Shown here piece by piece: positions 14,563 to 61,808 of a stretch of 64,000 bases of DNA (position 1 is the stretch's first letter; each line of letters starts with the position of its first letter). A program made the position numbers and the translations under genes. Origin of the DNA: Candidatus Obscuribacterales bacterium (lineage in GTDB: Bacteria > Cyanobacteriota > Vampirovibrionia > Obscuribacterales > Obscuribacteraceae); the NCBI GenBank assembly GCA_965228855.1, contig CBDDIJ010000003.1:2912001-2976000 (forward strand), read 5' to 3'. The notes beneath the pieces were generated by a model. The model was not told where the DNA came from. It ran no database searches and saw only the letters and a list, made by a program, of their open reading frames with translations.

Positions 14563-16167
14563 ATGGCGAAGATCCTGCAGCAACTTCCTGCAGCGCCAGG
14601 CTTATCCGAGATTCACCACTTCCTGTCTCAAGCAATGGAGCGAAGAGGCAGACAGGTCGTAATTTCATGGGCGACGCCCGATAAATTAGTGGAGTTTTCC
14701 CTCGAAATACAATGTCCGATAAAAGGCGGGGATACGGAATGGAAGCTGTTTAGCGGAAAAGATCGCGAGAGAAAACTCTTGTGGGAGTACAAGACCTGCG
14801 ACGTCCTCCTTGTCTACAATCTTATCGTTTCCTCCTCCGGAGAGATTCATCACGCCGTACAGATTGACGGAACGATGCTGACTTCGGAGGCTTTCCGCGA
14901 CCAATCGCGAAAACGCGACACTTACTACATGCAGGCTATGCAAACTCACGAAGTCGACATCGCACGTTTATCGCAACTTGGTTTAAAAGATAACTCGTGG
15001 TCGCGAGGCACGGCCGAACATACTGGTGATCTCTCGATTGTTCAAATCAGTTCACTGCTTCAATCACTTCTGATTGCGAAACTGACTGGCTGTCTCGAAA
15101 TCAACAAGAGCAACGAAAAGGCCAGAATCTTCTTCGTGGACGGAGAGCCGACTTACGCGGATATCGCCGCCGGACGCATAACCGGCGACGAATGTATTTT
15201 GGAAATAGTTACCTGGCGCGAAGGCAAGTACGAATTTATTCAACGGCAGAGAACGGAACATAAGAACGTTAAAACCAGCCTGGAGACTCTGGTTCTCCAA
15301 GGTGTCAAACTCAAGGATCAAACTAATTATTTGAAAAACGCCGGGCTTGGTCCGGACTCGGTTCTCGTTCAAAAGTATCTGAACATCACGCAGCCCGAAT
15401 TCGACGCCCGCACCACAGCTGGTGCGCCGGTGGCACTTCAAGTTCTTCGAAGCATCTATGTCACGATTGATTCGGAGAGCACGCTGAAAACAATCGCCAC
15501 TCGTTTACACCTCCCGCAAAGTGTCTGGGTGCCGGCAATTATTCACTTGTTGGAACTGGACCTTATAGGTTTCACAAATCCGGAACAGAACAAATCGGCT
15601 CCACCTGAGAATTTGATACCGAAAAGCATCGATCCCACACTCATTCACTCGGTGATGATGGGATTGCGACGCCCGGAAACAGGGATGTTTACCTATCCAG
15701 CGTTTCTCTACTTTCTGGAACAAGAATATTTCCGCGGTTACCGTGCCGGTAGCCCGCTATGCGTAATGGTCATGGAAATGCGCGTCGTCAAAGGTCCGCC
15801 GAACTTCGAGCGTGAGCCACTGGATGTGGTGGCAGTCGCGGAAGTCTTCAGACGAATCAGTGCGTTAAAGCGACACATCGATCTGGTTGCTCACTACGAA
15901 TCGTACGATTATGCAATGATTCTTCCGAATACGAAAAGTTCAGGCGCAAATGTATTTGCTCAACGCATCGTGAACTCTCTGCTCAGCACTCCATTGCCAG
16001 GCGTGCAACACGGCAAACTATCATTGTCCTTCGGCGTCGCCTGCATTCCTGAGGACTGCACGGATCTGTCCTACGTTCTGGCAGCCGCAGAGGCCGCCAA
16101 AGCTCAAGCGATTCTACTTGCAGCGCCAGTCATCCTGTTCCGAGATATCCGCCCGGGCGCCGAGTAA
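14563..16167 (+). CDS. multidomain protein: unnamed N-terminal domain + DUF4388/PatA_N + degenerate GGDEF
   Basis: GDLSIVQISSLLQ...TGCLEI...IFFVDGEP...WREGKYEF (DUF4388). The C-terminus has GGDEF-fold motifs ETGMFT, RHIDLVAHYESYDYAMILPNT and LSLSFGVA. Confidence 0.8.
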   Translation: MAKILQQLPAAPGLSEIHHFLSQAMERRGRQVVISWATPDKLVEFSLEIQCPIKGGDTEWKLFSGKDRERKLLWEYKTCDVLLVYNLIVSSSGEIHHAVQIDGTMLTSEAFRDQSRKRDTYYMQAMQTHEVDIARLSQLGLKDNSWSRGTAEHTGDLSIVQISSLLQSLLIAKLTGCLEINKSNEKARIFFVDGEPTYADIAAGRITGDECILEIVTWREGKYEFIQRQRTEHKNVKTSLETLVLQGVKLKDQTNYLKNAGLGPDSVLVQKYLNITQPEFDARTTAGAPVALQVLRSIYVTIDSESTLKTIATRLHLPQSVWVPAIIHLLELDLIGFTNPEQNKSAPPENLIPKSIDPTLIHSVMMGLRRPETGMFTYPAFLYFLEQEYFRGYRAGSPLCVMVMEMRVVKGPPNFEREPLDVVAVAEVFRRISALKRHIDLVAHYESYDYAMILPNTKSSGANVFAQRIVNSLLSTPLPGVQHGKLSLSFGVACIPEDCTDLSYVLAAAEAAKAQAILLAAPVILFRDIRPGAE

Positions 16168-16210
16168 AATCTCTACCTAATGGGCGAGAACGTTGACACG
16201 AAATCGAGAG

Positions 16211-16510
16211 TTACTTCAGTGCATCAAATATTCTATTGAATGTGCTGATTAGCATGAATGCGGCAAACATGAGGAAGCAGCAACCAAGCACTGCAAAAAC
16301 TATCATCGCCTTGCCGGCGTTTCGCAGATACTTCTTGAGAAAACTTTCCTTGCTGTCTACAGGAGCGGAAGGTCTCCCTGCCGATTGAGCTTTAGGCTCA
16401 GGCAAGTGAAGATCAGGCGTCTCACCTACGTGTATTTCGACAGGCACCGCATCCGGTGGCGCTGCCGGCGGCAACTCACGTTCTTCACCTGGATCATTCT
16501 GTTGAGTCAT
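16211..16510 (-). CDS. small membrane protein
   Basis: Pro-rich N-terminus and a single C-terminal hydrophobic helix; same strand as, and downstream of, nagZ. Confidence 0.55.
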   Translation of the reverse strand: MTQQNDPGEERELPPAAPPDAVPVEIHVGETPDLHLPEPKAQSAGRPSAPVDSKESFLKKYLRNAGKAMIVFAVLGCCFLMFAAFMLISTFNRIFDALK

Positions 16511-16593
16511 GACATAACCTCGGGCGAGTCGCAAGATTTGAAACGGTTTCTAAAAATCTGATCGTGATTTCGGTTGTACTTAAACACGATAAT

Positions 16594-18153
16594 CTAAACG
16601 GTAACTGTCTCTGATTGTACAGGACTTACGCCGGTGGCGATACGAGAAGCGAAAACTTGGGCGAGGGCTTTCATTGCCTGGTCGGATGGATCGTGAGTGG
16701 CGACCACGTTAGGCCAATCAGGCAAACCGTGAACATCAAATGGCGTATCCACGCATACGGCAACCTTTTCCTGACAAACATCAGCAACCATCTGCCCCAA
16801 TCTCAGTTGGTCCTCGAAATGCAATGCACGGAACGTGAGATAAACCACGTTCTTACCCGTCAATTCCTCAGCTATAAGGCTAGCTTCTTCGAAGGTCGGT
16901 TCAAGCGGATAGCGACGCAGTTCCAACAGTTCCGGTTTCTCTGCTTGACCTAAAGCAGCACTTAGATACTCGTGCAGGTTCATTGAATAGCGCGGATGGT
17001 CGGGAATCAACAAGGTCCATTTTTGCCCCTGCAGTTCCGGAATGCCACCACGCACGATTGCAATACCTTTCAATGATGCGTTAAAACTGAGATCAGCGCC
17101 TTCACAAACGAGCTTCTCTAAGCGAGCATATTTTCGCGGATTGTGCACAGGCGAGCAAGTCGTTGGCTTCTTATTGAAATGAGCTTTGATGCGCTCTCTG
17201 GATTCCTCAAGGCGCTCCGTTGAAATTCTACCGGATTGCGCGGCGGCAAGAAGGGCGCTGTAAGATTCTTGCAGCTCGTCTTCAGAACCGCACACGAGGA
17301 CTAAATCGGCACCGGCTTCGACAGCCATCACGCAAGCTTCACCCAAACCATACTTCGAAGTGATGCCTTTCATAACCATGTCGTCGGTCATGACTATGCC
17401 CTTGAATCCCAGATATTCGCGCAGGATTGAATGAGTAATACGTTTTGAAAGGCTTGCCGGGACTTGCTCTTCATCAATCTCAGTGCACCAGATGTGCCCA
17501 GTGAGAACAATCGGCAAGCTTTCGAGAATAGTTTTAAACGGCGCAAGATCAGTGTTCCACAGTTTCTCAACCGGCAATTTGTTTATCGCCAGCGCAACAT
17601 GCGAATCCTCTGTCGTGGCGCCATGTCCAGGGAAATGCTTACCGACGGGAACCAAGCCCTCAGCAGAAATCGCCTCGGCAACCAGACGGCCGTACTTTGC
17701 CACCTTATCTGGTGCATTTCCAAATGCCCTGGTGCAAACGATTGGGTTTACGAAATTGGAGATCACATCGAGAACCGGCGCCAAAAGGCAGTTTATGCCC
17801 AAAAGTTTCAGCTGACGGGAACTCAAACTCGAAATTTTTTCTATGATGTCCTCATCTCCGGTTGCAGCTAAGGCCATCGGAGATGGCAGCGGACTGATTA
17901 CGCGATCGAAGCGCTGCACAGCGCCTCCTTCCTGATCGGTGCAGACCACCGGCGGATGCAGGGACGCTTCGACCACGTCGTGAACAAGCGTCGCCAGCTC
18001 TTGCAGCTGTTCAGCATTCTCGCGAAAAAAGCAGATACCACCCACGGTGCCTGCCTGCAAACGTTTTCGATACTCCGGTGTAAGAGTCGTCGCCGGCACA
18101 CGACCAATCAATAGCCGACCGACGTTCTTTTCCAGGTCTTGCTTGCCTGCCAT
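16594..18153 (-). CDS. nagZ: beta-N-acetylhexosaminidase (GH3, NagZ-like, with C-terminal domain)
   Basis: DQEGG, APVLD, KHFPGHGATTEDSH NagZ signature and TDDMVM nucleophile. Confidence 0.9.
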   Translation of the reverse strand: MAGKQDLEKNVGRLLIGRVPATTLTPEYRKRLQAGTVGGICFFRENAEQLQELATLVHDVVEASLHPPVVCTDQEGGAVQRFDRVISPLPSPMALAATGDEDIIEKISSLSSRQLKLLGINCLLAPVLDVISNFVNPIVCTRAFGNAPDKVAKYGRLVAEAISAEGLVPVGKHFPGHGATTEDSHVALAINKLPVEKLWNTDLAPFKTILESLPIVLTGHIWCTEIDEEQVPASLSKRITHSILREYLGFKGIVMTDDMVMKGITSKYGLGEACVMAVEAGADLVLVCGSEDELQESYSALLAAAQSGRISTERLEESRERIKAHFNKKPTTCSPVHNPRKYARLEKLVCEGADLSFNASLKGIAIVRGGIPELQGQKWTLLIPDHPRYSMNLHEYLSAALGQAEKPELLELRRYPLEPTFEEASLIAEELTGKNVVYLTFRALHFEDQLRLGQMVADVCQEKVAVCVDTPFDVHGLPDWPNVVATHDPSDQAMKALAQVFASRIATGVSPVQSETVTV

Positions 18154-18167
18154 GGGATACGAGGCTC

Positions 18168-19142
18168 CTAGTTTCTCGTGGAAAGCAGTCGATAAACTTC
18201 GACCGCTTTGGTTTTTCCTTTTATATTGTAAGAGCCCATGTACTCAAAATTACATCTGTCGTTAGACAAAGTGAATGTATTTCCATCCACGATAATGTCG
18301 CCAGGTCTGTCGTCGCCAATCAGTTTTTCCAGACGGAAAACCAGATTAGCGGTGTCGCCAAGCACGGCGGGATTACCGGATGAATGCCCGAGCGCGCCGG
18401 CAGCAACCGGACCTGTGGCAAGAGCGATATCCAGATTGAGCGGATAGTCTTCGAAAGGCCACATTCGCTTGTCATTTCCAAGCTTGGCAATGACCTCTCT
18501 TAGTTTCAATGCAGTATGGCAAGCTTGATAGGCGGGTATACGCGCACCTTCGCTCGAGCTGTCACCAGCCCAGTAAGCCATAATCGCGTCACCTGCAATT
18601 TTTTCGAGCTGACCGTAATTTTTATTGATCTCGTCATTGAGCGATTCGAAAATGCGCTGAGCCGCGCCCATGACGATTTCAGGCGACGCCGCATAGGTTT
18701 CCATCAACGTCGTGAATTTCTTGATGTCACCAACCAGAATGGTGGCGTTCATAAACTTGATGCTGTACTGCGTGCGGTCCTGTGAGTCTTCTTCGCCTTC
18801 GTCAGCATCGAGCTCGAATTCCATCTGAGGCGGAAACACGCGCAATTGATACTGCGCGATGCGCACCTCATCACCATGACGCAGCGGGTACTCCTCACCG
18901 GAGACGCAAACCTTGCCGTTTATCGTGGTTCCGTTGGTGCTGTTTCTGTCCATGATAGTCCAGCCATCTGCACTACAGCGGATTTCAGCATGCTGACCGG
19001 AGACTTCAGGATACGGCAAAATGAGCTTCTTCACACCACCAGGAGCAGGTCTGCGCCCAATGTGGAGAACCTCACCATCAGTCAATTCCACCGAATATTC
19101 ATCCGGCGTGTCAGGATTTACCTTGATATTGCCGGAAGCCAT
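18168..19142 (-). CDS. FHA domain + class III nucleotide (adenylate) cyclase
   Basis: FHA motifs IGRR, VSGQHA and STNGT; cyclase motifs GDIKKFT, EKIAGDAIMAYW and GDTANLVFRLE. Confidence 0.88.
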   Translation of the reverse strand: MASGNIKVNPDTPDEYSVELTDGEVLHIGRRPAPGGVKKLILPYPEVSGQHAEIRCSADGWTIMDRNSTNGTTINGKVCVSGEEYPLRHGDEVRIAQYQLRVFPPQMEFELDADEGEEDSQDRTQYSIKFMNATILVGDIKKFTTLMETYAASPEIVMGAAQRIFESLNDEINKNYGQLEKIAGDAIMAYWAGDSSSEGARIPAYQACHTALKLREVIAKLGNDKRMWPFEDYPLNLDIALATGPVAAGALGHSSGNPAVLGDTANLVFRLEKLIGDDRPGDIIVDGNTFTLSNDRCNFEYMGSYNIKGKTKAVEVYRLLSTRN

Positions 19143-19352
19143 TTACTGCATTTTGCCAAGAAGAAACGTCCTAATTGCCCAGGTAGCTATTATATCGGCA
19201 GAAAATGGCGCTTCCAAACCTGTGATACAACAACTTAACAGGGCTTAAAACCACAAGTTGACAAGCTTTTGACATCCCTGGAGGTTGGATAAACCGCTAA
19301 AGCCGGTTTCGGCACACTTACTTTCCAGCCAGCTTTCATCGCTCGTCCACGT

Positions 19353-19787
19353 TTATTCGTCAGGGTCCGACAGATCCTGTGCCGGCATCGGCGGCAGTTT
19401 GGTATGCGCGCGGAATTGCTCATCCGACCTTTCGTCAAGACTGAGCGCATCCAGACGGAATGTTTCTTCCTGTGAGCTGTACCAGACTTGAATCGGAATA
19501 TGTGCGATGCCGATCTCGTCTTCATGGCGAAGTACGTACTCATCACCGGGAATGAGGAGGCGTCCGTTCAGGCTAGTCCCGTTGGTACTGCCCCTGTCCG
19601 TAATTCGCCAGTAAAAGCCATCATGCCAAACTTCGGCATGGGTACCGGATACGTTTGGATCGTTAATCAAGAATTTCTGCGCATCAGGCTCGGGTCGCCG
19701 CCCAATCTTGAGCCTGGAGCCCGGCTCCAGTTCTATTACTTGCTCTTCCGGTGTGCCCGGATTCACTCTCAGTTGGAAGTCACTCAT
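19353..19787 (-). CDS. stand-alone FHA domain protein
   Basis: IGRR, VSGTHA and STNGT motifs; paralogous to the FHA of the neighbouring cyclase. Confidence 0.85.
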   Translation of the reverse strand: MSDFQLRVNPGTPEEQVIELEPGSRLKIGRRPEPDAQKFLINDPNVSGTHAEVWHDGFYWRITDRGSTNGTSLNGRLLIPGDEYVLRHEDEIGIAHIPIQVWYSSQEETFRLDALSLDERSDEQFRAHTKLPPMPAQDLSDPDE

Positions 19788-19869
19788 TTAGCGTATTCCG
19801 CGTGTAGACAGGCTTCTAATGAATCAGCGAGCCCTTACGCAGGACTCGCTGATATCAGCAACATGCTTT

Positions 19870-21102
19870 TTAAACGCTGGTCGCCTTGGACAGAGCCTTT
19901 TTCAGCTCCTCTACGCGATCCAACTTCTCCCAGGGAAGATCGAGATCCGGTCTGCCGAAGTGACCATAGGCAGCCACATTCTGGAAGAACCTTCCGCCGG
20001 CGATCTTAGGTTGCTCGTTGAGCTTGAAGTGCGAAATGATTGCTGTAGGGCGCAGATCGAACTTCTCATTAACCAGAGCGGTAATCTCATCATCAGCGAT
20101 TTTGCCGGTGCCGAAGGTCGTAACCAGCACTGAGAGCGGACGAGCAACGCCGATCGCATATGCAATCTGGACTTCGCATTTTTTGGCAAGACCGGCGGCA
20201 ACGATGTTTTTAGCAACCCAACGAGCTGCATATGCTGCGGAGCGGTCAACTTTTGTCGGATCCTTACCGGAGAAGGCGCCACCGCCGTGACGGGAGTATC
20301 CGCCATAAGTATCGACGATAATTTTTCTGCCTGTCAAACCGGCGTCACCGTGCGGTCCTCCAACAACAAAGCGGCCGGACGGATTGATCAAATACTTGGT
20401 TTTGTCATCAAGATTGATTCCAAGCTCTTTGAAGACCGGCTGAATTACATATGCTTTGAGGTCGGTTTCGATGCGAGCGCGAATTTCTTCATTCTCACTC
20501 AACTTGTCGATCACCGGATCATGCTGCGTGGATATCAAAATCGAATCTACGCGAACGGGCTTCCCATCTTCGTATTCGATGGTGACTTGAGTTTTACCGT
20601 CGGGGCGCAGGTATTTCAACGTGCCATTCTTTCTGACTTCGGTTAGTCGAAGAGCTAATCTATGAGCCGCCGAGATCGGCATGGGCATTAACTCTTTGGT
20701 TTCGTCGCAGGCGTAACCGAACATCATGCCCTGGTCGCCGGCGCCGAGATTTTCTTTGTCATCTCTGGCGGCATCGACGGCTGGTGCGATGTCCGGTGAC
20801 TGTTTCTTCAAACCGGTGAGAACGGCTGTGGAGTTTGAATCGAATCCACCGCCCTTCTCGCCTTCGTAGCCAATCTCTTTGATGACGTCACGAACGAGGT
20901 CCTGGAAATCGATCTGGGCAACAGTGGTAATTTCGCCAATGACCAGAACCAATCCGGTGGACGCTGCGCACTCGCATGCTACGCGCGCCTGCGGGTCCTG
21001 GCTCAAAATTTTATCGAGAACCGCATCGGAAATTTGGTCGCAGACCTTATCAGGATGTCCCTCTGTGACCGATTCCGACGTGAATAAATAGCGCGTAGAC
21101 AA
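19870..21102 (-). CDS. metK: S-adenosylmethionine synthetase
   Basis: [33 protein letters not shown] and GGGAFSGKD motifs. TTG start at 21102 after a GAGGTG RBS. Confidence 0.97.
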
Positions 21103-21442
21103 TGTATGCACCTCGTATATAAACAACCTAGACTCGTTCGCTATATTTGCTTTACGGACGCAGTGCAGCGGCTCGAATTGCTTGCGAACAGCCAGCCTTT
21201 GCCGCGGCATCAAGATCAAGCCGCGCATTGAATGACGGACGTTCCTCAGACTGGAAGGAACATTCAGCCAAGTATGCTACCATTTTTTCGCCCTTCTGAA
21301 TTAAAGAGATACAAGGTTTGGAGCGCGTTTGAGACTTATCGAAGCAAAACGTAACCCCAGTTTCCTTATACGTCGGCGACTGCTATTTAGATGGTACCAA
21401 TCAGGTGCTAACATTTAGGAAGATGTACTTACAGGACAAATC

Positions 21443-22069
21443 ATGGCAACCGCATATTCACAGCAGAGTGACCGGGATTTAGTGTTAGCGTGCCAGCGTC
21501 GAGAGCCACAGGCATTCGAAGAACTCGTCAAACGCCATCAAAAGACAGTATATGCATTGCTATACCAATTGGCACCAGACTGGTCGGACACTTCTGATCT
21601 GGCTCAAGAAGTCTTCATTAGAGTTTGGCGCTCGATAAACAATTTGCGAAATCCGTCGTCATTTCGCTCGTGGCTAACGCAGATCGTCACGAACCTCTTT
21701 TATGATGAATTGAGGAAACGTCCGCGCAAACTGCCTACAGTGAGTATGGACGTGGCTCTTGGAGATGATGAATCAGATGAGGGCGCAACCAGAGATATCC
21801 CAGATGAGACAGATCTTCCTCATGACAAGCTGCTCAACAAGGAACTCTCAGAAATAATTCGCGAAGCAATGTTGAAACTGCCGGAACAGTTTCGAACAGC
21901 CATCGTCTTGAGGGAAGTGGAAGGGTTAAGCTACGAAGAAATTGCAGACATAACTCAAACTGAAATGGGAACCGTTAAGTCACGAATAGCCCGTGCACGG
22001 TTGAAACTGCAAGAGATGTTGAAGCCCTATCTGGAATCCACCGAGTCCGCAAGCGAGGTCTCCAGTTAA
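21443..22069 (+). CDS. ECF RNA polymerase sigma factor (RpoE/cyanobacterial SigG-like)
   Basis: Region 2 DLAQEVFIRVW...FRSWLTQIVTNLFYDELRKR and region 4 LREVEGLSYEEIA...GTVKSRIARAR. Confidence 0.93.
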   Translation: MATAYSQQSDRDLVLACQRREPQAFEELVKRHQKTVYALLYQLAPDWSDTSDLAQEVFIRVWRSINNLRNPSSFRSWLTQIVTNLFYDELRKRPRKLPTVSMDVALGDDESDEGATRDIPDETDLPHDKLLNKELSEIIREAMLKLPEQFRTAIVLREVEGLSYEEIADITQTEMGTVKSRIARARLKLQEMLKPYLESTESASEVSS

Positions 22070-22969
22070 ATGGTGAGAGCGTGTACCGATTATCAAGAGG
22101 ATTTATCTGCCCTGCTCGATGATGAGCTTGGCGCAGATGAGCATCAAGACGTGACGGGTCATTTGACCGAGTGCACGGATTGCGCTGCCCGTTTTGAGAC
22201 TATCAAGTCTCTGAGCGGCTTACTTAATAAGGAAAGCAGCAAAATCGATGCGATGCCCGACCTCTGGGATAGTTTAAAAGATGAATTACCCAGCGTATGT
22301 CTGGTTATTGAAGAGGATTTGTCCGCATATTTGGACGGTGAGTTGCCCTCAGCCGCTCAAGAAGGTGTCAAACGTCATTTAGATGAATGCGCCGAGTGTC
22401 TGAATAAATTCAAGCTGCTCAATTCGACCAATCAAATGCTTTCGAAGGGCCTGGCTCTTCCGGAAGGATTGGAAATTGATATCTGGTCAGGCGTGAAAGA
22501 CAGACTTGACTCCGATTGCGAATCAGTTCGCGACGATTTGTCCGCATACGCGGATCAAGAAGTCGATAGCGGTCGCCATCGGTTCATAACGTCACATCTT
22601 ATAGATTGCCTGCCATGCAGAGATTCATACGAATCGGTGACCAAAGTCGGCGATTTAATCAAGGAGCACTACAAACCGAAGATTCCGGAGAACCTGAACC
22701 TCTGGCCCGGAATTAAGATGAAAATGCAGGTCGTGCCGTTTACGCCGCGCGAACAACAGCAGCAGCCAAAGACGAAGAAGAAAATTCGTCCGAGATTCGC
22801 TGTGATGGTTGGAGCTGCAGCAGCCGTCATCGGTATACTGGGTTCACTTGCAGTTTGGCTTTCCGCACCGGATGACATACAATTTCCATCAATCTCTCCG
22901 GAGCAGTACTTGATAGAATCATCGTTCCAAGAGCCGACTGATTCGGCGGAGGCAGTCGTTTATGAATGA
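22070..22969 (+). CDS. zinc-binding anti-sigma factor with three zf-HC2 repeats
   Basis: Three C..DLSAxxDxE..HLxxCxxC units and one TM helix; starts immediately after the sigma stop codon. Confidence 0.85.
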   Translation: MVRACTDYQEDLSALLDDELGADEHQDVTGHLTECTDCAARFETIKSLSGLLNKESSKIDAMPDLWDSLKDELPSVCLVIEEDLSAYLDGELPSAAQEGVKRHLDECAECLNKFKLLNSTNQMLSKGLALPEGLEIDIWSGVKDRLDSDCESVRDDLSAYADQEVDSGRHRFITSHLIDCLPCRDSYESVTKVGDLIKEHYKPKIPENLNLWPGIKMKMQVVPFTPREQQQQPKTKKKIRPRFAVMVGAAAAVIGILGSLAVWLSAPDDIQFPSISPEQYLIESSFQEPTDSAEAVVYE

Positions 22970-23474
22970 CAGACGGGTAGGTAGAATCGCGATAATTGCA
23001 TTCGTGCTCAGCGCGTATCCGATGTCGGCTGGCGCTCAGCAAGAATGTGCTACTGGCACGTGCAATATCGACTATTCGAAGCTCAACCTGACTCAAGAGC
23101 AAGCTGTGAAAATTCAGCAATGCGACCATGAGTGGTTCCAGGAGCTTCAACAAACGCAGCCTGAAATTCAGACGTTGCAACAAAAGTTCCGCAGACTTTT
23201 GTCGAGCTCAAAGCCTGATGCCACCGAGATTTTGCTCGTGCAGCAACAGATCGAAGCGAAGAAGAGTAAGCTGAAACTGAAAGCAACTCAGACCCTTTTG
23301 AAAAAGAAACAGCTGCTCGACGATTCACAAAAGAAAGCGTTCGACAATCAGTTTCAGGGCGAGGTTCTGAAAATGAGACAACAGGGCAATGGAGTTGAAA
23401 GCAACGTTGCACCGGTTCGTTGGAAGAAGATCTGGAACAACATGCAGAACGTTTTCAATCAAGAAGCTCATTAA
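22962..23474 (+). CDS. Spy/CpxP-like periplasmic protein
   Basis: Signal peptide plus LNLTQEQ and LDDSQK (LTxxQ-type) motifs; overlaps the anti-sigma gene. Confidence 0.7.
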   Translation: MNDRRVGRIAIIAFVLSAYPMSAGAQQECATGTCNIDYSKLNLTQEQAVKIQQCDHEWFQELQQTQPEIQTLQQKFRRLLSSSKPDATEILLVQQQIEAKKSKLKLKATQTLLKKKQLLDDSQKKAFDNQFQGEVLKMRQQGNGVESNVAPVRWKKIWNNMQNVFNQEAH

Positions 23475-23506
23475 TCTCTGCAGAGTTTCTCAAACCAAAA
23501 AAATTT

Positions 23507-28014: not shown

Positions 28015-28018
28015 CTCA

Positions 28019-40437: not shown

Positions 40438-40660
40438 AAAACCGCGTTACCTGCAATTCCTTGAGAATCTGCACTAAATTTAGCCTTTGTGAGGGTTTCC
40501 GCCAATGGTGGAATTCCCACGGCGACCTTGTTTATATGGGACAAACACGCCCTTGAAAACCACCAGATTGGCAGTTCGGTTATTTTGTTTTTTAGAGTCG
40601 CAACTTTACCAACCTGTTACCATGAACGGCGTAGTTCACCGTAATCGAGAGAGGCAGCCA

Positions 40661-41968
40661 GTGACGGCGTTTATGACAGTTTCGAAACTAAACCGATTTT
40701 CCGTTTCACTAGCCCTGTCGATTGCCTTTTCTCTAACTGCTGTGAAAGCGGGCGCCGCGGCTCAAACAACGCCCGCCGCAACACCATCAGGCGCCCCGAA
40801 CGAAGCGGCAGCGCCCGTCGTGAGCCTGACCTCTCAGGCCCTCAACCAGAAGGGGCAAAACTACAAAATGTCGCCGGACGACAGTACCTGGCGAGAGTTT
40901 CTCGAAACTCTTCGTATCTACCTGACTGATGTTCGCACACTTAAGGCGCCCTCGACAGCGGTTATCGGGCAAAACAAAGCACTCAAGGACATGCAAGCCC
41001 GAGTCCTGGACGCTGGTGGCGCGAGAGTCTGGACTTTCCCTGGCTCACAACACAATCACAGCCTGGTCATTCAGTCGGCGGGCTCGACTACACCAGAGGG
41101 CACAACAGGCGCGAGAGTTTCAATCGTACCGGTTCCGGAAACAGCCAACGTCACAGCCGCAAAAATCATCAGGTCTTTTACAACCACGACGAAACCGATG
41201 AAAGTTGGCAGACATAAAGTCGTGCAAAAGACGGTGAAAGTCGAAGGACCAAGCATGCTTTGCGTGGCGGGACTCGACCGAGTTTCCGGTCTGGTTTACC
41301 TGGGCGCTTTCAAACCGGTTGCCGGAGCATGGGTGGCAACCAGCGAGCCATTCTCCCAGATTCCATCACACTTTATGCAGTCTCTATCCGGTCAGGCGAG
41401 CTTCTCCGGCAACGACCTGGTGTTGTCGGTTTCATCGCAAAATTCCGCGCCGCCAAGCGAGAATGCCAACGGCAACACGCTCCCGCGGCCGAAGTCGACT
41501 TCCTATCAAATCGTCTTGAAGTTCAACGGTGGTCACTTCCAACTGGCGGGTAGCCCTGGCAAAGACGTTCCGCTCTCGGTGGTGTCTTACTTTGTGCAAT
41601 GCGTGCGGACCAATCGCATGGATCTAGCCAAAGCATGGGTCGCCGACCCGCTTTTGATCAACAACATGAAGTATGCAGGCTTGATTGGTAAAAACGGAGA
41701 CCCTTACAAACTCGTTGCCATGACACAGCCGCCAAATGCGTACGCGCGCTATCGACTGGTCACAGGAACCAAGTACGACTTGATTTTCGATGTCGGCAAG
41801 GTCAAAAAAGACATTCTGATCAAAGCTATTTTCATAGCGCCGCCGGACAACCTCGCCCGCAACCTTGCCGGTACGATGATCGGCGCACCAGTAACGCCTC
41901 CGGCAACGGTCGACGCAGGCGCCGCGCCCGCGACGCCCGCTGCCACAGCGCCGAAGGCGGAACACTAG
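40661..41968 (+). CDS. secreted hypothetical protein
   Basis: Signal-peptide-like N-terminus (…AVKAGAAA) with Pro/Ala-rich ends. Start is GTG 40661 or ATG 40673. Confidence 0.65.
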   Translation: MTAFMTVSKLNRFSVSLALSIAFSLTAVKAGAAAQTTPAATPSGAPNEAAAPVVSLTSQALNQKGQNYKMSPDDSTWREFLETLRIYLTDVRTLKAPSTAVIGQNKALKDMQARVLDAGGARVWTFPGSQHNHSLVIQSAGSTTPEGTTGARVSIVPVPETANVTAAKIIRSFTTTTKPMKVGRHKVVQKTVKVEGPSMLCVAGLDRVSGLVYLGAFKPVAGAWVATSEPFSQIPSHFMQSLSGQASFSGNDLVLSVSSQNSAPPSENANGNTLPRPKSTSYQIVLKFNGGHFQLAGSPGKDVPLSVVSYFVQCVRTNRMDLAKAWVADPLLINNMKYAGLIGKNGDPYKLVAMTQPPNAYARYRLVTGTKYDLIFDVGKVKKDILIKAIFIAPPDNLARNLAGTMIGAPVTPPATVDAGAAPATPAATAPKAEH

Positions 41969-42039: not shown

Positions 42040-44040
42040 ATGATCTGGAACACTACTCGAAATGGGAATATTATTGAACAGATCAACACGGAAAGGTTTC
42101 AAAAGTTGCGTCGTCCTCCACCAAATAACGACTTGCAGGGACGCAAGCTGGAAACGGACCGCGATTTGACCCTCGATGAGAGAGGTTACTTCGGCGCCGC
42201 CCAGACATTTTTGACGTATTCATATCGAGAAAACCTCTTCGCGCAGCTCGACAGGCTTGTTGAGGCGGGTAAGACAGTCGACGGTTTAATCATCGATCTG
42301 ATGCAGACGGGCTTCTCGCTGCCGCTTGATGCACTGGCAAAATTTGCCCAGTACGCAAAACGCCTTTTGAAACCGTCCGGCGTTCTGCTCTTCGTCAAAG
42401 CGGACGGTGCCATTACACTGTCAAAGGACGACTCATCAGGTGGCTTGACACTCAACGTCTATGATAGCCCCTTCGGAATTTTCGCTCGCCATCCGCTTCT
42501 TGCAGACTACGTTTGCGCAACAGTCTCCGGTATCGATCGCCGACGACTTCGCGGCGGTGGCAGCACGCTTGCAACGCACATTCTCTACAATTCGGTTCCA
42601 GTCGTGCGCGAAGAAGGAAAAGCCATCAAAGGCGACTTCTCGCTTCCTGCGCCGCAGAACTGGGTCTTGCAATTGGTTGACGATTACTCTTCGGTGGAGT
42701 CGATTGTTCGCACACTGGAGGCGCGTAATCAATTGCCGGCGGATGAGACCCTGCGAATTCTTCAAGAGATGGAGTCGCAACGCTTTATCTATCCCATTTT
42801 TGCGCGGGTCCAGTTCTTATCGAATTGCTACCACAATCGCAAGAAGTTTCGCCTCGGTCGATACATGGTGGCAGCTGGAATATTGACGGAAAACGAATTG
42901 CAGGAGCTCTTGGAACTGCAGCAAGAAGAAGGCTGGGGTAAACAGCAGAAGACATATTTAGGCTTGCTGGCTGTGCGTCAGGGTTATCTGACGACGCGCG
43001 AACTCGAAGTTCTGCTCGACGATCAGTATCTCTACGGCGGCTACAACGTCGATCGAATGAAAGACTCCAATGGTAAGGAGCGCGCTGTCAATTCAGATTC
43101 CATGCGCGATTCGATGATTGGAAGTCTCGGAGCGATAGACACGGCCGGTCTATTGCAATCACTTTCAACTGCGAAGAAGACCGGTTTGCTTACAGTTGAG
43201 AACCGCGACAAATCTTGCACAATCGCATTCAATCTTGGAAAACCGACACACGCGAAGATGAATAAATTAGTCGGCATTGATGCGATGACTGAATTTCTTG
43301 TGGATTGGTCCGAAGGCATTTTTGTCTTCAAAGATAAAGCAGTGTCAACCGAGATTGACGATTCATGCACCTTTACACAATCACTGGACAAAATTCTTTT
43401 AGACTCGGCACTAGCACAAGATCAAGTAAATCAAATTCTCAGCGGTTTGCCTTCCGGAAAAAACACAATCCTGGAACGCGTATGGAATTTTGAAACCCTC
43501 TGGACAAAGGCTAACGAACGCCCTCTTCAATACATAGACGAAACCACTCCGTCCGAGCGCGACAAACAAAATATTCTGGACCTTGTGCAACTGATCGACG
43601 GACTCTCGACCATAGATGAAGTGATTCGATCACATGAATCCTGGCCGGGTCATATGATCATGAAGGCTATTCAACTGCTGATCGATAATAAACTTGTGTC
43701 GATTCAACAGGCGAGTTTGTTTAGACCTCTTACTGTTTTCCAAAAGATTACGGCTGAAATTCAGGATGTCATCGGCAGAGAAGACAACCGCAGTATTCTG
43801 GAAGCGAGCCTGCATTATGTGCACGGCGACTCACCGGCATCAAATCGTTTCAACATCGACCATGAAGGTCGCGTATCGGTAAACTTGAGCCAGGTTAAGC
43901 GCACCGGCGCGCCGGTATCCGCCGTGCTTCTTGAACTGCGACGCTGGATGGAAGCCTATCTTGCCTATTGTCGGCGTCAGAGCGATCCGGCCATCATCGA
44001 TGAAATTGTCACGCGCATCATCGACACGCACCGCTCCTGA
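42040..44040 (+). CDS. MshEN-motif + DUF4388/PatA_N multidomain protein
   Basis: Tandem RLGRYMVAAGILTENELQELLELQ / YLGLLAVRQGYLTTRELEVLLDDQ motifs; DUF4388 GSLGAIDTAGLLQ...KTGLLTV...WSEGIFVF. Confidence 0.8.
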   Translation: MIWNTTRNGNIIEQINTERFQKLRRPPPNNDLQGRKLETDRDLTLDERGYFGAAQTFLTYSYRENLFAQLDRLVEAGKTVDGLIIDLMQTGFSLPLDALAKFAQYAKRLLKPSGVLLFVKADGAITLSKDDSSGGLTLNVYDSPFGIFARHPLLADYVCATVSGIDRRRLRGGGSTLATHILYNSVPVVREEGKAIKGDFSLPAPQNWVLQLVDDYSSVESIVRTLEARNQLPADETLRILQEMESQRFIYPIFARVQFLSNCYHNRKKFRLGRYMVAAGILTENELQELLELQQEEGWGKQQKTYLGLLAVRQGYLTTRELEVLLDDQYLYGGYNVDRMKDSNGKERAVNSDSMRDSMIGSLGAIDTAGLLQSLSTAKKTGLLTVENRDKSCTIAFNLGKPTHAKMNKLVGIDAMTEFLVDWSEGIFVFKDKAVSTEIDDSCTFTQSLDKILLDSALAQDQVNQILSGLPSGKNTILERVWNFETLWTKANERPLQYIDETTPSERDKQNILDLVQLIDGLSTIDEVIRSHESWPGHMIMKAIQLLIDNKLVSIQQASLFRPLTVFQKITAEIQDVIGREDNRSILEASLHYVHGDSPASNRFNIDHEGRVSVNLSQVKRTGAPVSAVLLELRRWMEAYLAYCRRQSDPAIIDEIVTRIIDTHRS

Positions 44041-53238: not shown

Positions 53239-53247
53239 ACTAAACTC

Positions 53248-54357: not shown

Positions 54358-54601
54358 CTGAAGCCTCCTGGTCGAAAAAATGACCAGACAATTCCACCCG
54401 GATACCTTACGGAGAACTCCTGAAAATTAGGAGTGATTTAGAATATATATTCCACAGCGTCTGTCACTCGTAGCAGACGATCGGAATGTCAGCCCTGATG
54501 AAAGACCTCCTGAGCCTGCTGAAGGAAATCAAGCTTTGGAATTCTACTGAAAGAAACACGACGATTTCTGGACAGGTTTGTTTCCGCGCTGCGGTTTAAA
54601 C

Positions 54602-56299: not shown

Positions 56300-56409
56300 A
56301 CAGCTTGTCCTCTTGGAAAGAGATCTCGCCCAGACGCGGTCATTATAGAGTATCCTGTAGGGACTGCACTAAGTAGTCGAGCCGTATATTCTGGTTTTCG
56401 CCGTATCTC

Positions 56410-58020
56410 ATGTTGAAGTCGAAAATCTCACTAGTTTTATCAAGCGCAATCGTACTTGCGTCCGCAAATTCTGCGGCTTCGCAGGACCAGGCGCTGACGA
56501 TCGCATCGCCATTCAAGAAAGACGAACAACCTGCCGGCCAACCAGATAAAGGCCATCTTGAGGATACGAATCAAACCGGAGATGTCGACTCACGAAAGAC
56601 TGAGCCCAAGAAGCAGTCCGCTCCACCGCAGGAAGGCCGCGTCGAGGCTGAGGTTGTTCTTAACTCTTCAGCCTGGGATAAGTATTACCGCAGCGGCATA
56701 AGCGCTCTTGCGGACCGCCGCTTCGACCATGCGGAGCAAATGCTTCTCAAGTCGCTCAAAGAATCAAAAGTCGCGGGTGTTCCTCAAGCAAATTTGACCT
56801 TGAGCAGACTCTCGCTTGCAGAATTATATTTGAAACAATCGAGATATTCAGAAGCACACACACTTTATGAGTCAACGCTCCAGCGGGCACAAGCGGCTTT
56901 TGGAAATAGTTCAATGGAAGTGGCCGAGTGTTACTACGGTCTTGCATATACGGAGATCAAATTCGATAAAGAGAAGCAGGCGAAGGAACATGCAGATATC
57001 GCCATCCAAATTCTCAAAGACCTCGGCAAGACAGATTCGGAATTGTACGGGCTAACCCTGCATACCATGGGTCTAATCATGGCTAAGCACGGCTGGACCG
57101 ATGACGCAAAGCCACTTTTCACTCTTGCGAGAAAAACCCTCGAGCGTCACCCTGGAAATAAGAAGTTAGATCTTGCGGAAGCACTTCGCGAGCAGTCTCT
57201 CTTCTATCACAGCCTCGGAGATCGGCATACCGCCCACGATTTGTATGAAACATCGTACAAGATCAGAGAGTCGAACGTAGTGGCTAGTCAGCCGGCGTCC
57301 ATCGTAGGTGAAGTTCGTTTTGCCTGGGAGCCAGGTTCGTCACGTGCTCAGGAGATCATCGACAACGATTTCCCTTTCCGGTACATGTCCGCGCACGGCA
57401 TCCGTGTTGCCTGCACCGTCGTTGATCTCTGGGAGTTGCTTGCCATTCTCGTTACGGTTACAAACGTCGGAGAAAAGCAAGAAGAGTTCGAACTTGGAAA
57501 AATCATTCTTGAACGAAAAAGCGCTGACATCTCCAATCGCTCTCGAGAGGTCCCAGTCGTCGATCACCAGCGCATCGACAGAATCGGAAAAGAGCGCAAT
57601 ATGTGGGACTTAACTCATACCCGCCCGTGGCTCGCCAACATTCAAAAGACGAGAACAGTGAGAGGCTTAGTTCCACCAAACGGTCATGATCTGTTCATGG
57701 GACCGAACGTGTTTGGTGTGTACGGCGAATGGAAGGCGATATCGCATATAGTACCAGAGCGTGTAGGTGTGATGCCATCAAGAGAACATCTCGTCGCCGT
57801 GCAATCAACCGCCGTAGATCTGCCGGGTCTGGTAAGACCAAGCAAAGCAAAAATGAGCGGTCTCATTCCGGTTTGGTTGGAGCCGTATGAATCACGCACG
57901 GGTGAGCAGTTTTATTTAAACCCTCGAGACGCTGATATCATCATCAAGGTGCCGGTCGGAAACGCTATCTTCGAGTTTCCATTTCACACGCGCAAAATCA
58001 AGATTCCACGTTCGATCTAA
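56410..58020 (+). CDS. secreted TPR protein with unknown C-terminal domain
   Basis: Signal peptide, TPR array (LAELYLKQSRYSEA...) and an unrecognised beta-rich C-terminal half. Confidence 0.7.
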   Translation: MLKSKISLVLSSAIVLASANSAASQDQALTIASPFKKDEQPAGQPDKGHLEDTNQTGDVDSRKTEPKKQSAPPQEGRVEAEVVLNSSAWDKYYRSGISALADRRFDHAEQMLLKSLKESKVAGVPQANLTLSRLSLAELYLKQSRYSEAHTLYESTLQRAQAAFGNSSMEVAECYYGLAYTEIKFDKEKQAKEHADIAIQILKDLGKTDSELYGLTLHTMGLIMAKHGWTDDAKPLFTLARKTLERHPGNKKLDLAEALREQSLFYHSLGDRHTAHDLYETSYKIRESNVVASQPASIVGEVRFAWEPGSSRAQEIIDNDFPFRYMSAHGIRVACTVVDLWELLAILVTVTNVGEKQEEFELGKIILERKSADISNRSREVPVVDHQRIDRIGKERNMWDLTHTRPWLANIQKTRTVRGLVPPNGHDLFMGPNVFGVYGEWKAISHIVPERVGVMPSREHLVAVQSTAVDLPGLVRPSKAKMSGLIPVWLEPYESRTGEQFYLNPRDADIIIKVPVGNAIFEFPFHTRKIKIPRSI

Positions 58021-58286
58021 CGATTGAGACACGAGAGCGCTGCGCAAAGCATCAGTTTCTGCAGTGCAAAAACACGTCAAAACATCAATATCAAAACCTC
58101 TGAAGAAGCGCATGGTTTGTCAAACATGCGCCCATTGTGCTTCAACGAATTTATTTAAACTTTTGTCGAAACACGACTCGAAGTGTATAGACTCAGACAC
58201 GCAAATTGACGTAGTAAGGGGCTGGGGAGCTACCTGACCGTTAAATAAATATGGTCTCTTTTTGGATTCCTAAGGAGGATCACCCC

Positions 58287-59162
58287 ATGTCTCAATCGTC
58301 AAACTTCGAAGCTTCTTCAGATGGACTCATAATGGGCGGCTTAGCTGCCGGCTCTCATGATGCTAGAAAAACACTTTCAGAGGAGTTTTCAGCAACTTTT
58401 GCCGACGCGTTAAAAAAACTGACCGCACCTAATCCCGATGCGCAGCCGGATAATACACCGAACAGACAACATTCGCAGCTGCAGTCGGAGGGCAGTTCTT
58501 CTGAAGTTCAGCGAGCAGAGAACACAGCGCCATCACTGATTGATGCGGCCAAACGAGCCGCACAGAATGCAATTGAAAGCGGCAGCGCAAAAAAGAACGG
58601 TTCAACAGATATAGAAAACGGAATGCTGAGTAAACTCTCAGACCGGCTAGACAATTCAATCTTAGAGAAGAAGATCTTCAACCCGTCATACGAAGTCACG
58701 GATAGAGATAGACAGCTAGCAAAGGAAAAACTTTCTAGAGGTTTGAGTGACTTGATCCCGGAAGCCGATCGCAAGCTTCTCAAGCAAATGCAGCACGCTG
58801 TTATAGATGGCGATGTTGAAGCGATGAAGAAGGGGTTAAACCAACTTGCTGACGATCCAGCAAGGATGGAGCGGTTCATCAAGGCGTTAAATTCACAGCT
58901 TAACGGAATTGAACTTTCGAAAGACGGAAAGGGAAACGTTCTCATGTACGCAAAACGTGGAAACACCGCGCTGTCAATCAACCCGGATAGCGGTGAAACA
59001 AGCGTTCGCGCAGTGGAACGGCAAGCCGATGGAAGTGTACTCTTAAAACCAGGCGAAATAATAAATCGCACCGCATCCGGTATCATGCAATCGCTGGGTG
59101 ATAACGTCACGCGCAACTTGACTGGATGGTACAATCGGCTCGACTCTAAACATGAGAAATAA
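58287..59162 (+). CDS. hypothetical protein
   Basis: AAGGAGG RBS before ATG 58287; no motif recognised. Confidence 0.65.
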   Translation: MSQSSNFEASSDGLIMGGLAAGSHDARKTLSEEFSATFADALKKLTAPNPDAQPDNTPNRQHSQLQSEGSSSEVQRAENTAPSLIDAAKRAAQNAIESGSAKKNGSTDIENGMLSKLSDRLDNSILEKKIFNPSYEVTDRDRQLAKEKLSRGLSDLIPEADRKLLKQMQHAVIDGDVEAMKKGLNQLADDPARMERFIKALNSQLNGIELSKDGKGNVLMYAKRGNTALSINPDSGETSVRAVERQADGSVLLKPGEIINRTASGIMQSLGDNVTRNLTGWYNRLDSKHEK

Positions 59163-59262
59163 ACTGGCCGTGAATTGAAGCTTGTTCATCAAGCAACTCA
59201 AGAAGAAAATCTAGATGGAAGCGGCATCGCCGATGGAATCGTGAAGGAGAAGATGAACGAAT

Positions 59263-60108
59263 TCACGCTTCCATCGCGGCTTCTCTAGTCGTATCGTATT
59301 CACGAATGCAATGTTCGAAACCGTCTCGATACGAAGGGAATCGAAGGGAAATACCAAGGTCGCTCAACACCTTTCGAGGGTTGATTTGTCTATTTCCTTG
59401 CTGCGTGATATGTGCTTGTTCAATCGGAATCGAAGGTGGCAATTCCAGGCGAAGTCGATCACAAAGCCACTGCACGACTTCGATTTGAGGACAAGGCGTT
59501 TCATCACCAACCACGTAGGTGGCTCCGCATGGCGCAAGGAGCAACGCTTTTAAAACGATCGCCGCAAGATCATCGAGATGTATGCGCGATGAATATCTCG
59601 TGCCGTCACCGGGGAGCCTGAATTTCCCGGCAAGCAGACTCCTGTGCATACCGTAGTTCGTATCGTACAAAGCGGGAGCACGCAAAACGATTGCACCGCA
59701 CTCCTGCCAGCTGCGTTCCGCACGAAGTCGCGCGGTTGTAGCAGGATTTCCGGAATCAACCGGCGAAGCTTCATCTATGATACCGGATAAGCCACCATAC
59801 ACACCCGTACTCGAGATGTATACGATTTTCGCCGCAGTCGAAACTGTCTCAGAAAGTACGCTATCAGAAACTTCGTCCGGTGGAAAACTTGCAACGACGT
59901 GAGAGTCCATTGCAATCTCACGAATTTTCACTAATGACTCAGGGAACATCGCGTCACACAATATCGGCGTTATCTGCCGATCCAGGAGATATGGCATTTT
60001 TTCCGGCTGACGCGTGGTACCATATATGGTTTCATAAGAACCATGAGCAGCTTTATTGACAGCCAGTGCGGCGTTTCCTACGCCCAATAGCAAAAGGGTT
60101 TTGATCAC
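59263..60108 (-). CDS. NAD(P)-dependent epimerase/atypical SDR (YeeZ-like)
   Basis: GTTR, YISSTGVYG, RLRAE, SRIHLDDLA and FPSYRDG motifs. The GTG start overlaps the upstream TAG. Confidence 0.85.
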   Translation of the reverse strand: MIKTLLLLGVGNAALAVNKAAHGSYETIYGTTRQPEKMPYLLDRQITPILCDAMFPESLVKIREIAMDSHVVASFPPDEVSDSVLSETVSTAAKIVYISSTGVYGGLSGIIDEASPVDSGNPATTARLRAERSWQECGAIVLRAPALYDTNYGMHRSLLAGKFRLPGDGTRYSSRIHLDDLAAIVLKALLLAPCGATYVVGDETPCPQIEVVQWLCDRLRLELPPSIPIEQAHITQQGNRQINPRKVLSDLGISLRFPSYRDGFEHCIREYDTTREAAMEA

Positions 60109-61808
60109 TAGTTTTCCCAGCCCAGCTCCTTGAGAGCCGAGTCCAGATCTATGCGACTGCGCTGGCAGTAATGCAGAGCGATAATCGCCTTACCTTCTTC
60201 CAGCTTGTTTTGCGCCACCAGTTCGTTGCATTTGAATGCACCATCCGCGGTGTGTTGATCGAGTTTGCCGGCCTTCACGAGGATACTGACGATCTGACCG
60301 CCGTGTTTGTCGCGAACTTTGCTGGCGGTTTCATTATCAAAGTCACTAACTAGTTGGGCTTTCCGCAGCAACTCTAGCGCCAACGTCGATTCATTTGTCT
60401 CACCTGAGGTCTCCTGGACCTTGCGCCCAACACCGAAGACCTCCAGGCAAAGTGCATCAAGCGCTTCATCTTTAGTCATTTCGCCGGAGCGGATACTTTC
60501 CTGAAGTTTCAGCGCCTGACGAATCACGGGACCGCGGATTATGGCAGCCTCAACGAGAATCTGACCGAGAGGCGGTGCCAAAGCCTTCATATCACTTGGT
60601 TTAAGAGGCGCCGCGATAAGCTTGGGATCTACCGCTCCACCTCGAATATGCGCTCGGCGGACCGCTTCTGCGGCCTTTGCCGTGCTCAAGCTGCCGGAGC
60701 GCACAAGCTCCTGTAACTGCAAAGCCGCATCTACTGTAGTCTCAGGAACCAGACCAGCCTCCACAAGAAACTGACCGAGACGGAGGTTGGGACGAGGCTG
60801 ATCACTCGGAGCAGGCATTTGCTGCGCGCCGGGCTGCATCATCGGCTGGACTCCCGACTGCAACATCGGCTGAACGCCTGACTGCATCATCGGCTGAACC
60901 CCGGACTCCATCATGCCCTGCTGAGGATACTGCTGATTTTGTTGGGGATAGCCCTGAGGATAGCCGTACTGCGGATACCCGGGATAACCTTGCGGATAGT
61001 AGCCCTGAGGATATCCCTGCGGATAGCCCTGCACGTAACCGTATTGCGGCGGGTACTGGTATCCCGGCGGATAGGGCAAACCTGGCGGCATTCCGGGCGG
61101 CGGAGCAGCAGCGGCGGTCGGCTGTACGTTGCCAGCTTCTGGCTGCGGCTGCTCATCAGCCTTCTCGCTCTTCTCCCTCTTCTGTTCCTTCTTCGCCTTT
61201 GTCTCAGGCGTGTCGGAAAGCAAGGCAAACTCATTGGCAGAAGCGAGTCCAGACTGGTAAAAGGATAGCCCCTTCGATGGCATTTCAACGGCTTCATTAC
61301 CGGTCAGAAGCCCATTGTCGTTGTATCCCGGGCGTTCCATCGATGGTTGAACCTGCGGAGCACGCTCGTCACGAGCGTCGCGGTTGAGCGCGCTCGGTCC
61401 CGCGGAACTTACGCCGCTGGTGGACTCGGAAAAACTGCTCGAACCGCTGAACGTTCCGCTGGTAGATGCTGATGAACTGTGCGACTTGCTGGAGAACTCA
61501 GTTTCGACTTCTTCAGGAATCGATAGCATCAACACGTCGTACAAGAGCTCCACGTCCTCGAAAGGCGAACTCCAAACGACACGAGACTTGCCGCCCTCGC
61601 CTTCATACAACGTCCATATCGGGTCGCCGCCTGCGACCTCAAGGCGCGTCGTGAGACTGTAATGCACGCCGGTAAGCTTATTCTTCCACGGCAGTTCCAC
61701 CGTGCAGCCCTTGGCCTTGCTTGCCTCGTCAGCCAGACTTTTGACGTCAGCGACTTTGGGAGCATGCGACAGTGGATTGAGGCGAACGTGTTTTTTGGGT
61801 CGGTACAT
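60108..61808 (-). CDS. unnamed N-terminal domain + Y/P/Q/G low-complexity linker + MshEN-like repeats
   Basis: RLGQFLVEAGLVPETTVDAALQLQ and PLGQILVEAAIIRGPVIRQALKLQ motifs; N-terminus paralogous to the 14563 protein. Confidence 0.75.
   Translation of the reverse strand: MYRPKKHVRLNPLSHAPKVADVKSLADEASKAKGCTVELPWKNKLTGVHYSLTTRLEVAGGDPIWTLYEGEGGKSRVVWSSPFEDVELLYDVLMLSIPEEVETEFSSKSHSSSASTSGTFSGSSSFSESTSGVSSAGPSALNRDARDERAPQVQPSMERPGYNDNGLLTGNEAVEMPSKGLSFYQSGLASANEFALLSDTPETKAKKEQKREKSEKADEQPQPEAGNVQPTAAAAPPPGMPPGLPYPPGYQYPPQYGYVQGYPQGYPQGYYPQGYPGYPQYGYPQGYPQQNQQYPQQGMMESGVQPMMQSGVQPMLQSGVQPMMQPGAQQMPAPSDQPRPNLRLGQFLVEAGLVPETTVDAALQLQELVRSGSLSTAKAAEAVRRAHIRGGAVDPKLIAAPLKPSDMKALAPPLGQILVEAAIIRGPVIRQALKLQESIRSGEMTKDEALDALCLEVFGVGRKVQETSGETNESTLALELLRKAQLVSDFDNETASKVRDKHGGQIVSILVKAGKLDQHTADGAFKCNELVAQNKLEEGKAIIALHYCQRSRIDLDSALKELGWEN
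60819..61090 (-). repeat. coding tandem repeats (M[ML][EQ]SGVQP x3-4; YPQG/YPPG)
   Basis: 24-nt repeats at 60819-60914 and ggatagccctg-type repeats at about 60925-61090. Confidence 0.8.

Follow-up and report, generated by a model that had tools for sequence, protein, structure and literature searches.

Domain architecture of the three genes

The window analysed here is a 64,000-nucleotide stretch (C3:2912001-2976000) of the 8.2-Mb genome of a Candidatus Obscuribacterales bacterium, and contains three genes, A, B and C, that combine known cyclic di-GMP (c-di-GMP) and PATAN parts with one new domain. The families to which they belong are a novel arrangement of these parts, are specific to the order and give a lead to the GTPase MglA. 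Positions are those of the window unless a contig (C2 or C3) is named. An earlier sequence-only reading had described the three as proteins sharing modules pairwise, and its three open reading frames (ORFs) were recovered where it had placed them.

Gene A (14563..16167, + strand; 534 amino acids, aa) was resolved from its ORF, Pfam matches, profiles and predicted fold into an unnamed domain with three conserved tryptophans (the three-Trp domain), a disordered linker, a PATAN domain, a winged helix and a dead GGDEF domain. The three-Trp domain (aa ~3-96, 14569..14850; profile and fold) is predicted to be beta-alpha-beta4-alpha and has conserved P12, W36, W60, W74 and D80. PATAN corresponds to DUF4388 (PF14332; PMC12448109) and was located by Pfam and hhalign at aa ~152-262 (15016..15348), followed by the winged helix (aa ~263-340, 15349..15582; hhalign and fold), which matched 8fw5_C with Z 9.2 and a root-mean-square deviation (rmsd) of 2.4 over 74 aligned residues. 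Both Pfam matches of A were over the cut-off, DUF4388 at aa 154-253 (55.5 bits) and GGDEF at aa 427-515 (28.8 bits); the PF14332 gathering score is 25 bits, met by A and B. The predicted fold (125 sequences) had a predicted local distance difference test score (pLDDT) of 87, with the N-domain at residues 3-99 and the disordered linker at 97-150, and a predicted template modelling score of 0.45, so the domain arrangement is left unsettled by the model.

Gene B (42040..44040, + strand; 666 aa), a core gene of the order, was divided by ORF, Pfam and predicted fold (pLDDT 78) into six parts: an alpha/beta N-domain, a winged helix, an MshEN-like pair, a PATAN domain, a further winged helix and a helical C-domain. 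The pair (42850..43026; motif and fold) comprises two MshEN-like 24-residue motifs with an 11-residue spacer and is predicted to form a four-helix bundle. PATAN (aa 357-470) and the winged helix after it (aa 476-558) span 43108..43713 (Pfam, hhalign and fold); Pfam placed DUF4388 at aa 361-460 (58.2 bits) and gave no match to PF05157 in B. The conserved N-domain (aa ~55-162, 42202..42525) weakly resembles the C-terminal half of class I methyltransferases; the matches cover part of the fold only (E 0.15-0.41; Z 5.1-6.5) and a methyltransferase is not claimed. An Atlas search with this N-part returned only its own cluster, at 0.84.

Gene C (60108..61808, - strand; 566 aa; ORF and profiles) consists of a three-Trp domain (aa 9-100, 61509..61784), a low-complexity S/P/Q/Y linker and MshEN-like helical repeats, and matched no Pfam family. 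By motif search, motif 1 lies at aa 343-366 (60711..60782), the sole strict-pattern match among the 25,971 ORFs of the genome, and motif 2 at aa 413-436 (60501..60572), 46 residues past motif 1. Sequence comparison showed that a terminal degenerate helical unit (60111..60386) is common to three other three-Trp proteins, two of which are Ser/Thr kinases.

The sharing of the N-domain between A and C was borne out by a joint profile hidden Markov model (HMM), described below, and A and B share DUF4388 as had been read and the winged helix besides (hhalign 99%, E 1e-18). The proteins had also been taken as soluble, consistent with the absence of any evident transmembrane segment in the three sequences. 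No response-regulator REC domain (Response_reg in Pfam) was matched in A, B or C.

A degenerate GGDEF domain in gene A

The C-terminal domain of A (15634..16152) aligned with the GGDEF fold (Z 20.4, rmsd 2.3, 157 residues aligned; Foldseek E 1e-8), and a viral fold search gave matches to GGDEF alone. It lacks both GG(D/E)EF and the metal-binding motif. That the domain is degenerate and has RxxD had been noticed earlier. RxxD (R437-D440, 15871..15882), a candidate c-di-GMP I-site, is followed by five residues and then by ESYDY in place of GGDEF. Across the conservation alignment (120 rows: A and 119 of its 143 matches), position 446 carries E or D in 117/117 ungapped rows and GG is never present. 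Alignment with the cyclases of the genome and WspR showed that the metal/GTP-binding DxDxFKxxND..GH segment is absent. Judged by its sequence, with ESYDY at the active site and no metal motif left, A cannot be a cyclase.

The I-site residues R437 and D440 are present in 117 of the 120 rows, the other 3 being gaps, and R468 in the next helix is present in 113, with K in 4; K436-R437-x-x-D440 and R468 are fixed across the relatives of A while neighbouring positions vary. We take R468 to be equivalent to PleD R390, the second I-site Arg. Among the 15 three-Trp GGDEF paralogues in the genome, RxxD is kept in 10 and GG[DE]EF in none. The candidate RxxD of A would be a probable binding site for c-di-GMP.

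It was found that no GGDEF, EAL or HD-GYP domain other than the GGDEF of A occurs among the 51 window ORFs scanned with Pfam, in agreement with the sequence-only reading, which had seen no active enzyme of these types. The window had no Rfam match and therefore no c-di-GMP riboswitch at the gathering score. The genome as a whole does hold turnover genes, with 46 GGDEF matches (10 with exact GG[DE]EF, indicating diguanylate cyclases) and the phosphodiesterase-type domains EAL (4) and HD_5 (5), together with 1 PilZ match, 22 DUF4388 matches and a pilB-pilT-pilC...pilM cluster. Approximately seven more single-domain degenerate GGDEF proteins of 220-260 aa, several with RxxD, occur genome-wide without a three-Trp or PATAN domain.

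MshEN-like motifs in genes B and C

The motif positions that contact c-di-GMP, including Gly3 and Gln24, were taken from PMC5013675 and PMC11731258; the canonical spacer is 5 residues. B and C had been read as sharing MshEN. Both carry two motifs and match NF053729, a 53-residue MshEN motif model, but at 19.5 and 34.5 bits they fall below its curated cut-off of 38 bits, and their spacers of 11 (B) and 46 (C) residues are not canonical. Of the earlier domain calls, DUF4388 and GGDEF had profile support over the Pfam cut-off and MshEN did not reach its own; none of the outcomes named beforehand as refuting the reading was seen among those examined.

The ten contact positions (L2, G3, L17, L21 and Q24 of both motifs) are kept in all 120 rows of the B alignment (B and 119 of 221 matches), with an 11-residue spacer in 119. 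For C (101 rows: C and 100 of 116 matches), the same ten positions are kept in 100 rows, with a spacer of 45-50 residues. In the predicted model of B, residues 269-332 overlay c-di-GMP-bound MshE (5htl_B; rmsd 1.4 Å, 58 residues, Z 6.1) and PilF GSPII-B (1.7 Å, 58 residues, Z 5.2), the longer spacer being looped out. These Z values are middling; sequence matches to PilB and MshE (E 0.09-2) add support. On its motifs and model B is the best c-di-GMP candidate of the three, and its MshEN-like bundle would quite likely bind the ligand. C would need pairing of its two distant motifs, or of two chains, and binding in that manner is conceivable but somewhat doubtful. The loss of the first Arg in relatives of C (22/101 keep it) was considered as evidence against binding and dropped given PMC11731258, whose extended consensus accommodates the M/L/R/K found at this position.

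Repeats of this type are greatly expanded in the order. NF053729 gave 89 matches in 43 proteins of the genome, 23 of them with a single match over the cut-off, and many are of approximately 400 residues with three or four repeats. Per genome, the number of matches was 12 to at least 50 in 30/30 genomes of the order vs 0-8 in 91 others. In the repeat proteins motif 1 is usually without its final Gln. In approximately 25 proteins of about 400 aa, three or four MshEN-like units make up nearly the whole chain, and the gene for one of these proteins overlaps an A-type gene. An acidic 1227-aa protein (C3:1386903-1390586) has an MshEN that looks intact plus a PilB fragment. PilB itself (C2:2297360-2299507) has degenerate MshEN motifs (26.8 bits) with no first Arg, and its C-terminal end consists of Cys-rich zinc-ribbon repeats.

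The three-Trp family and its range

The HMM seeded with A and C converged on 19 proteins of the genome (E 2e-27 to 6e-18); the next real match was at E 0.13 and the best on reversed ORFs at E 0.2. Thirteen of the 19 have PATAN and a dead GGDEF, two a dead GGDEF only and four MshEN-like ends, two of the last four carrying Ser/Thr kinase motifs. The three-Trp domain had no significant Pfam, PDB-sequence or Atlas match, the fold lists obtained with the whole of A being filled by GGDEF. Its identity as a diverged PATAN was rejected (hhalign 0.2%). It may be a docking or localization tag common to receptors and two kinases, a role that we hold to be slightly less likely than not. A tandem pair of three-Trp, Ser/Thr kinase and MshEN-like proteins lies at C3:200389-203842. 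Four of the 19 genes fall inside approximately 100 kb spanning the window (C3:2926500-3027137), and one of them (C3:3003719) adjoins a REC-GGDEF cyclase gene.

These families proved to be lineage-specific, as had been proposed. The three-Trp domain was found in 104/107 genomes of the order (1-22 matches each) vs 0/400 others sampled from the phylum, and the B profile at E 1e-10 in 100/100 genomes of the order vs 0/201 others in the class. Relatives of A in Ca. Obscuribacterales and Obscuribacter genomes are 99-71% identical. Beyond the phylum, the range of the three-Trp domain was judged from the named matches of A, B and C, which belong to Obscuribacterales, Melainabacteria and a few metagenome-assembled genomes labelled as oxygenic cyanobacteria. 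We take these labels as mislabels, short of proof, because the genome-based searches gave none outside the order. One relative's genome is labelled Proteobacteria and holds 18 three-Trp matches, in line with the rest; this label is probably wrong.

A, B and C do not form a dedicated trio; they are samples of large paralogous families (19 three-Trp and 43 MshEN-like proteins).

Gene neighbourhoods and the link to mglA

The neighbours of A, B and C are housekeeping genes, and none of the three adjoins mglA. A heme oxygenase gene (13631-14434) directly upstream of A is kept in 3/3 other genomes with A in the block. The block containing A and B also holds miaB, metK, argS and pepA in 3/7 genomes read, and in one more genome the block is present but gives no match to A. 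The closeness of A and B was rejected as a functional cluster, being ordinary synteny common to housekeeping genes. In 7/7 genomes read, B is immediately preceded on its own strand by a 487-aa ORF without Pfam match (40505-41968), and pepA follows B.

An A-type paralogue elsewhere in the genome (C2:1498480-1500075) ends 96 bases before a same-strand gene for an MglA-like GTPase (mglA2). NCBIfam gave only small_GTP for this protein, which we take to be MglA from its motifs. An A-type gene lies directly upstream of mglA2 on the same strand in 28/30 of the best loci, a selection biased to close relatives, and in 3/20 further loci, across nine genera in all. The linked A-types form one group (FastTree, Shimodaira-Hasegawa-like support 98), two subgroups of which match two groups of linked MglA, although bootstrap support is not settled. 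That one A-type clade lies directly upstream of a second mglA in nine genera is new here; the pair shows long co-inheritance, not proof of binding. The link was absent from the core MglA1 loci (0/13) and from other paralogues (0/7), two of these stretches ending at a contig edge. No roadblock gene was found beside either mglA, the four roadblock matches of the genome lying elsewhere. MglA occurs in 96/100 genomes of the order vs 2/201 others in the class.

The core MglA1 (C2:1561963-1562541) is an orphan flanked by genes resembling hsp33 and rpmB, and its identity is 94-98% over most of the genera read; many genomes hold extra MglA paralogues, up to six. A second A-type paralogue closes the pilM cluster in this genus and in only 1/20 other loci.

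Comparison with described systems

The PATAN plus winged helix of A and B is like that of PatA, PixE and PixG in cyanobacteria and of SgnC and other Myxococcus PATAN proteins. The PATAN of PixE binds PilB1 and PilC (10.1101/2021.06.11.447907), and PATAN genes neighbour mglA/B elsewhere (PMC4316618, 10.1101/2021.06.11.447907), as in Myxococcus PATAN systems and, here, in one A-type clade. Unlike PatA-type regulators, A and B have no REC domain: the input of A is the dead GGDEF, and that of B an MshEN-like pair before, not inside, PATAN. A further departs from known PATAN proteins in its extra three-Trp domain, and the mglA partner has no coupled mglB. The sequence-only reading had called the network undescribed. 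For the pairing in B this goes too far, in that PATAN with GspE_N/alpha-clip in one chain, the arrangement that B resembles, is already in print (10.1101/2021.06.11.447907). The literature searched, which lacked most subscription papers, yielded neither the three-Trp domain nor the PATAN-dead-GGDEF fusion, nor the family expansion. Within the same literature nothing was found on c-di-GMP in Obscuribacterales, MglA in Melainabacteria or diguanylate cyclases in Vampirovibrionia, and on DUF4388 with GGDEF only a ComFB paper.

PopA and SgmT are degenerate-GGDEF I-site receptors. Like these and PelD (PMC12448109), A combines the GGDEF fold and a lost active site with a kept RxxD, but its partner domains differ and its c-di-GMP site is a candidate. 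The dead-GGDEF protein CdgA is part of the Bdellovibrio MglA hub (PMC3983030), in which CdgA, RomR, TPR (Bd2492) and MglA bring a degenerate GGDEF receptor, an orphan MglA and type IV pili into one system. In Bdellovibrio, two-hybrid assays gave no direct CdgA-MglA binding (PMC3983030); the dead GGDEF here is instead fused to PATAN, is encoded next to mglA in the linked clade and has 13-15 paralogues. The literature on PATAN with PilB1/PilC, GspE_N and mglA/B and on CdgA with MglA also includes PMC11580455. Like MshE (V. cholerae) and PilF (T. thermophilus), B and C have two 24-residue motifs with contact residues, and the B model overlays both bound structures; unlike them, B and C have no MshEN C-subdomain, a longer spacer and a score below the NF053729 cut-off. 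The 43 MshEN-like proteins per genome compare with 22 in M. xanthus, the highest number published (PMC5013675), obtained by a different method.

Proposed role and alternative explanations

We favour, with about even confidence, an explanation in which A, B and C belong to Obscuribacterales-specific families that relay c-di-GMP to the MglA-GTPase and type IV pilus system. In A-types c-di-GMP would bind the dead GGDEF, and in B the MshEN-like bundle, altering what the PATAN/winged-helix module can touch. That module is, by a small margin of probability, the output touching MglA or PilB/PilC: its target would be MglA in the linked clade and, in the remaining proteins, PilB/PilC or a different hub protein, with the three-Trp domain acting as a common docking tag. 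The MglA-GTPase and type IV pilus system would in turn set cell polarity and surface movement. A more far-reaching version seems unlikely to us, namely that c-di-GMP-gated PATAN proteins take the place of a coupled MglB as direct controllers of orphan MglA GTPases, a Myxococcus/Bdellovibrio-like polarity circuit built independently; we give the same low credence to its wiring by the three-Trp docking domain and the largest known MshEN-like receptor set (~40 proteins, many with four repeats).

Several observations weigh against the relay to MglA and pili. Control of motility, as proposed from the sequence, gains support from the mglA-linked A-type clade; window gene A lies outside that clade, and 7/7 other non-core mglA paralogues are without an A-type link. 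The A-type gene as a member of the pilM cluster is a genus-level feature, kept in 1/20 loci of other genera. The common range of MglA and these families counts as a single evolutionary event, not many, and one genus includes three genomes in which MglA and B are present and the three-Trp domain gave no match. As to the ligand, RxxD is a common background, present in 10/10 exact GG[DE]EF domains of the genome; the paralogue of B has a broken first motif; the spacers and scores of B and C are as given above; and B is 63-91% identical across matches, therefore the invariance of its motifs says less.

In a fairly improbable alternative the proteins are c-di-GMP receptors whose outputs are mostly not pili or MglA but division, development, exopolysaccharide or kinase signalling. 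The housekeeping surroundings of A, B and C, the single mglA-adjoining member among 13 full A-type paralogues, the two three-Trp Ser/Thr kinases, an orphan PatA that acts outside pilus control (10.1101/2021.06.11.447907) and a conservation of B far above that expected of a tunable motility adaptor are all consistent with it, but mglA is the only conserved functional neighbour found and the known partners of PATAN are pilus motor parts (10.1101/2021.06.11.447907). Slightly less probable is that the dead GGDEF and helical repeats serve an MglA/pilus hub as scaffolds independent of ligand, making protein contacts of the alpha-clip type, with c-di-GMP binding lost or marginal. RxxD is missing from 5/15 paralogues, the conservation peak of A is the helix region 368-394 and not the I-site, Gln is found in both motifs in just 3/36 tandem MshEN units, the second motif of PilB is without Gly, and B and C score under the cut-off. 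Against scaffolds stand the ligand-contacting Gly3 and Gln24, which are invariant in both motifs of B and also in those of C, a fast-evolving protein, and the fixed I-site residues of A among variable neighbours.

The region of A equivalent to the cyclase dimer helices is strongly conserved, and a C-type paralogue adjoins a REC-GGDEF gene in the genome, as would suit A-types that are dead-enzyme regulators pairing with active diguanylate cyclases and tuning local c-di-GMP synthesis. We consider this improbable: no A-type gene lies beside an active cyclase within the 3-kb neighbourhoods read, and B, C and the mglA pair are left unexplained. The winged helices in both A and B, some of whose weak structural matches are DNA-binding regulators (Z about 5), might instead mark c-di-GMP-responsive transcription factors. 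This is the least probable of the alternatives, since the best fold matches, though middling, are winged helices that bind peptides or proteins (MccB Z 8.3, PbtF RRE Z 7.4, GATOR1 chain Z 8.2-9.2) and DNA binding by PatA-type proteins is judged unlikely (10.1101/2021.06.11.447907).

If true, the relay to MglA and pili would be the first account of how second messengers and motility are controlled in Obscuribacterales, a non-photosynthetic sister group of cyanobacteria that is widespread but little studied, and would add one new domain together with about 60 c-di-GMP receptor candidates in each genome. The PATAN-dead-GGDEF and mglA pair opens an in vitro test of the role of PATAN beside MglA GTPases, and of whether c-di-GMP can directly gate a bacterial Ras-like switch. 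B and C probe how far the MshEN spacer can stretch.

Other features of the window

At 18168-19787, two genes from A, lie a gene combining FHA with a class III nucleotidyl cyclase and another encoding FHA by itself. The region 21443-23474 encodes an extracytoplasmic function (ECF) sigma factor, an anti-sigma factor matched three times by zf-HC2, and a small helical protein.

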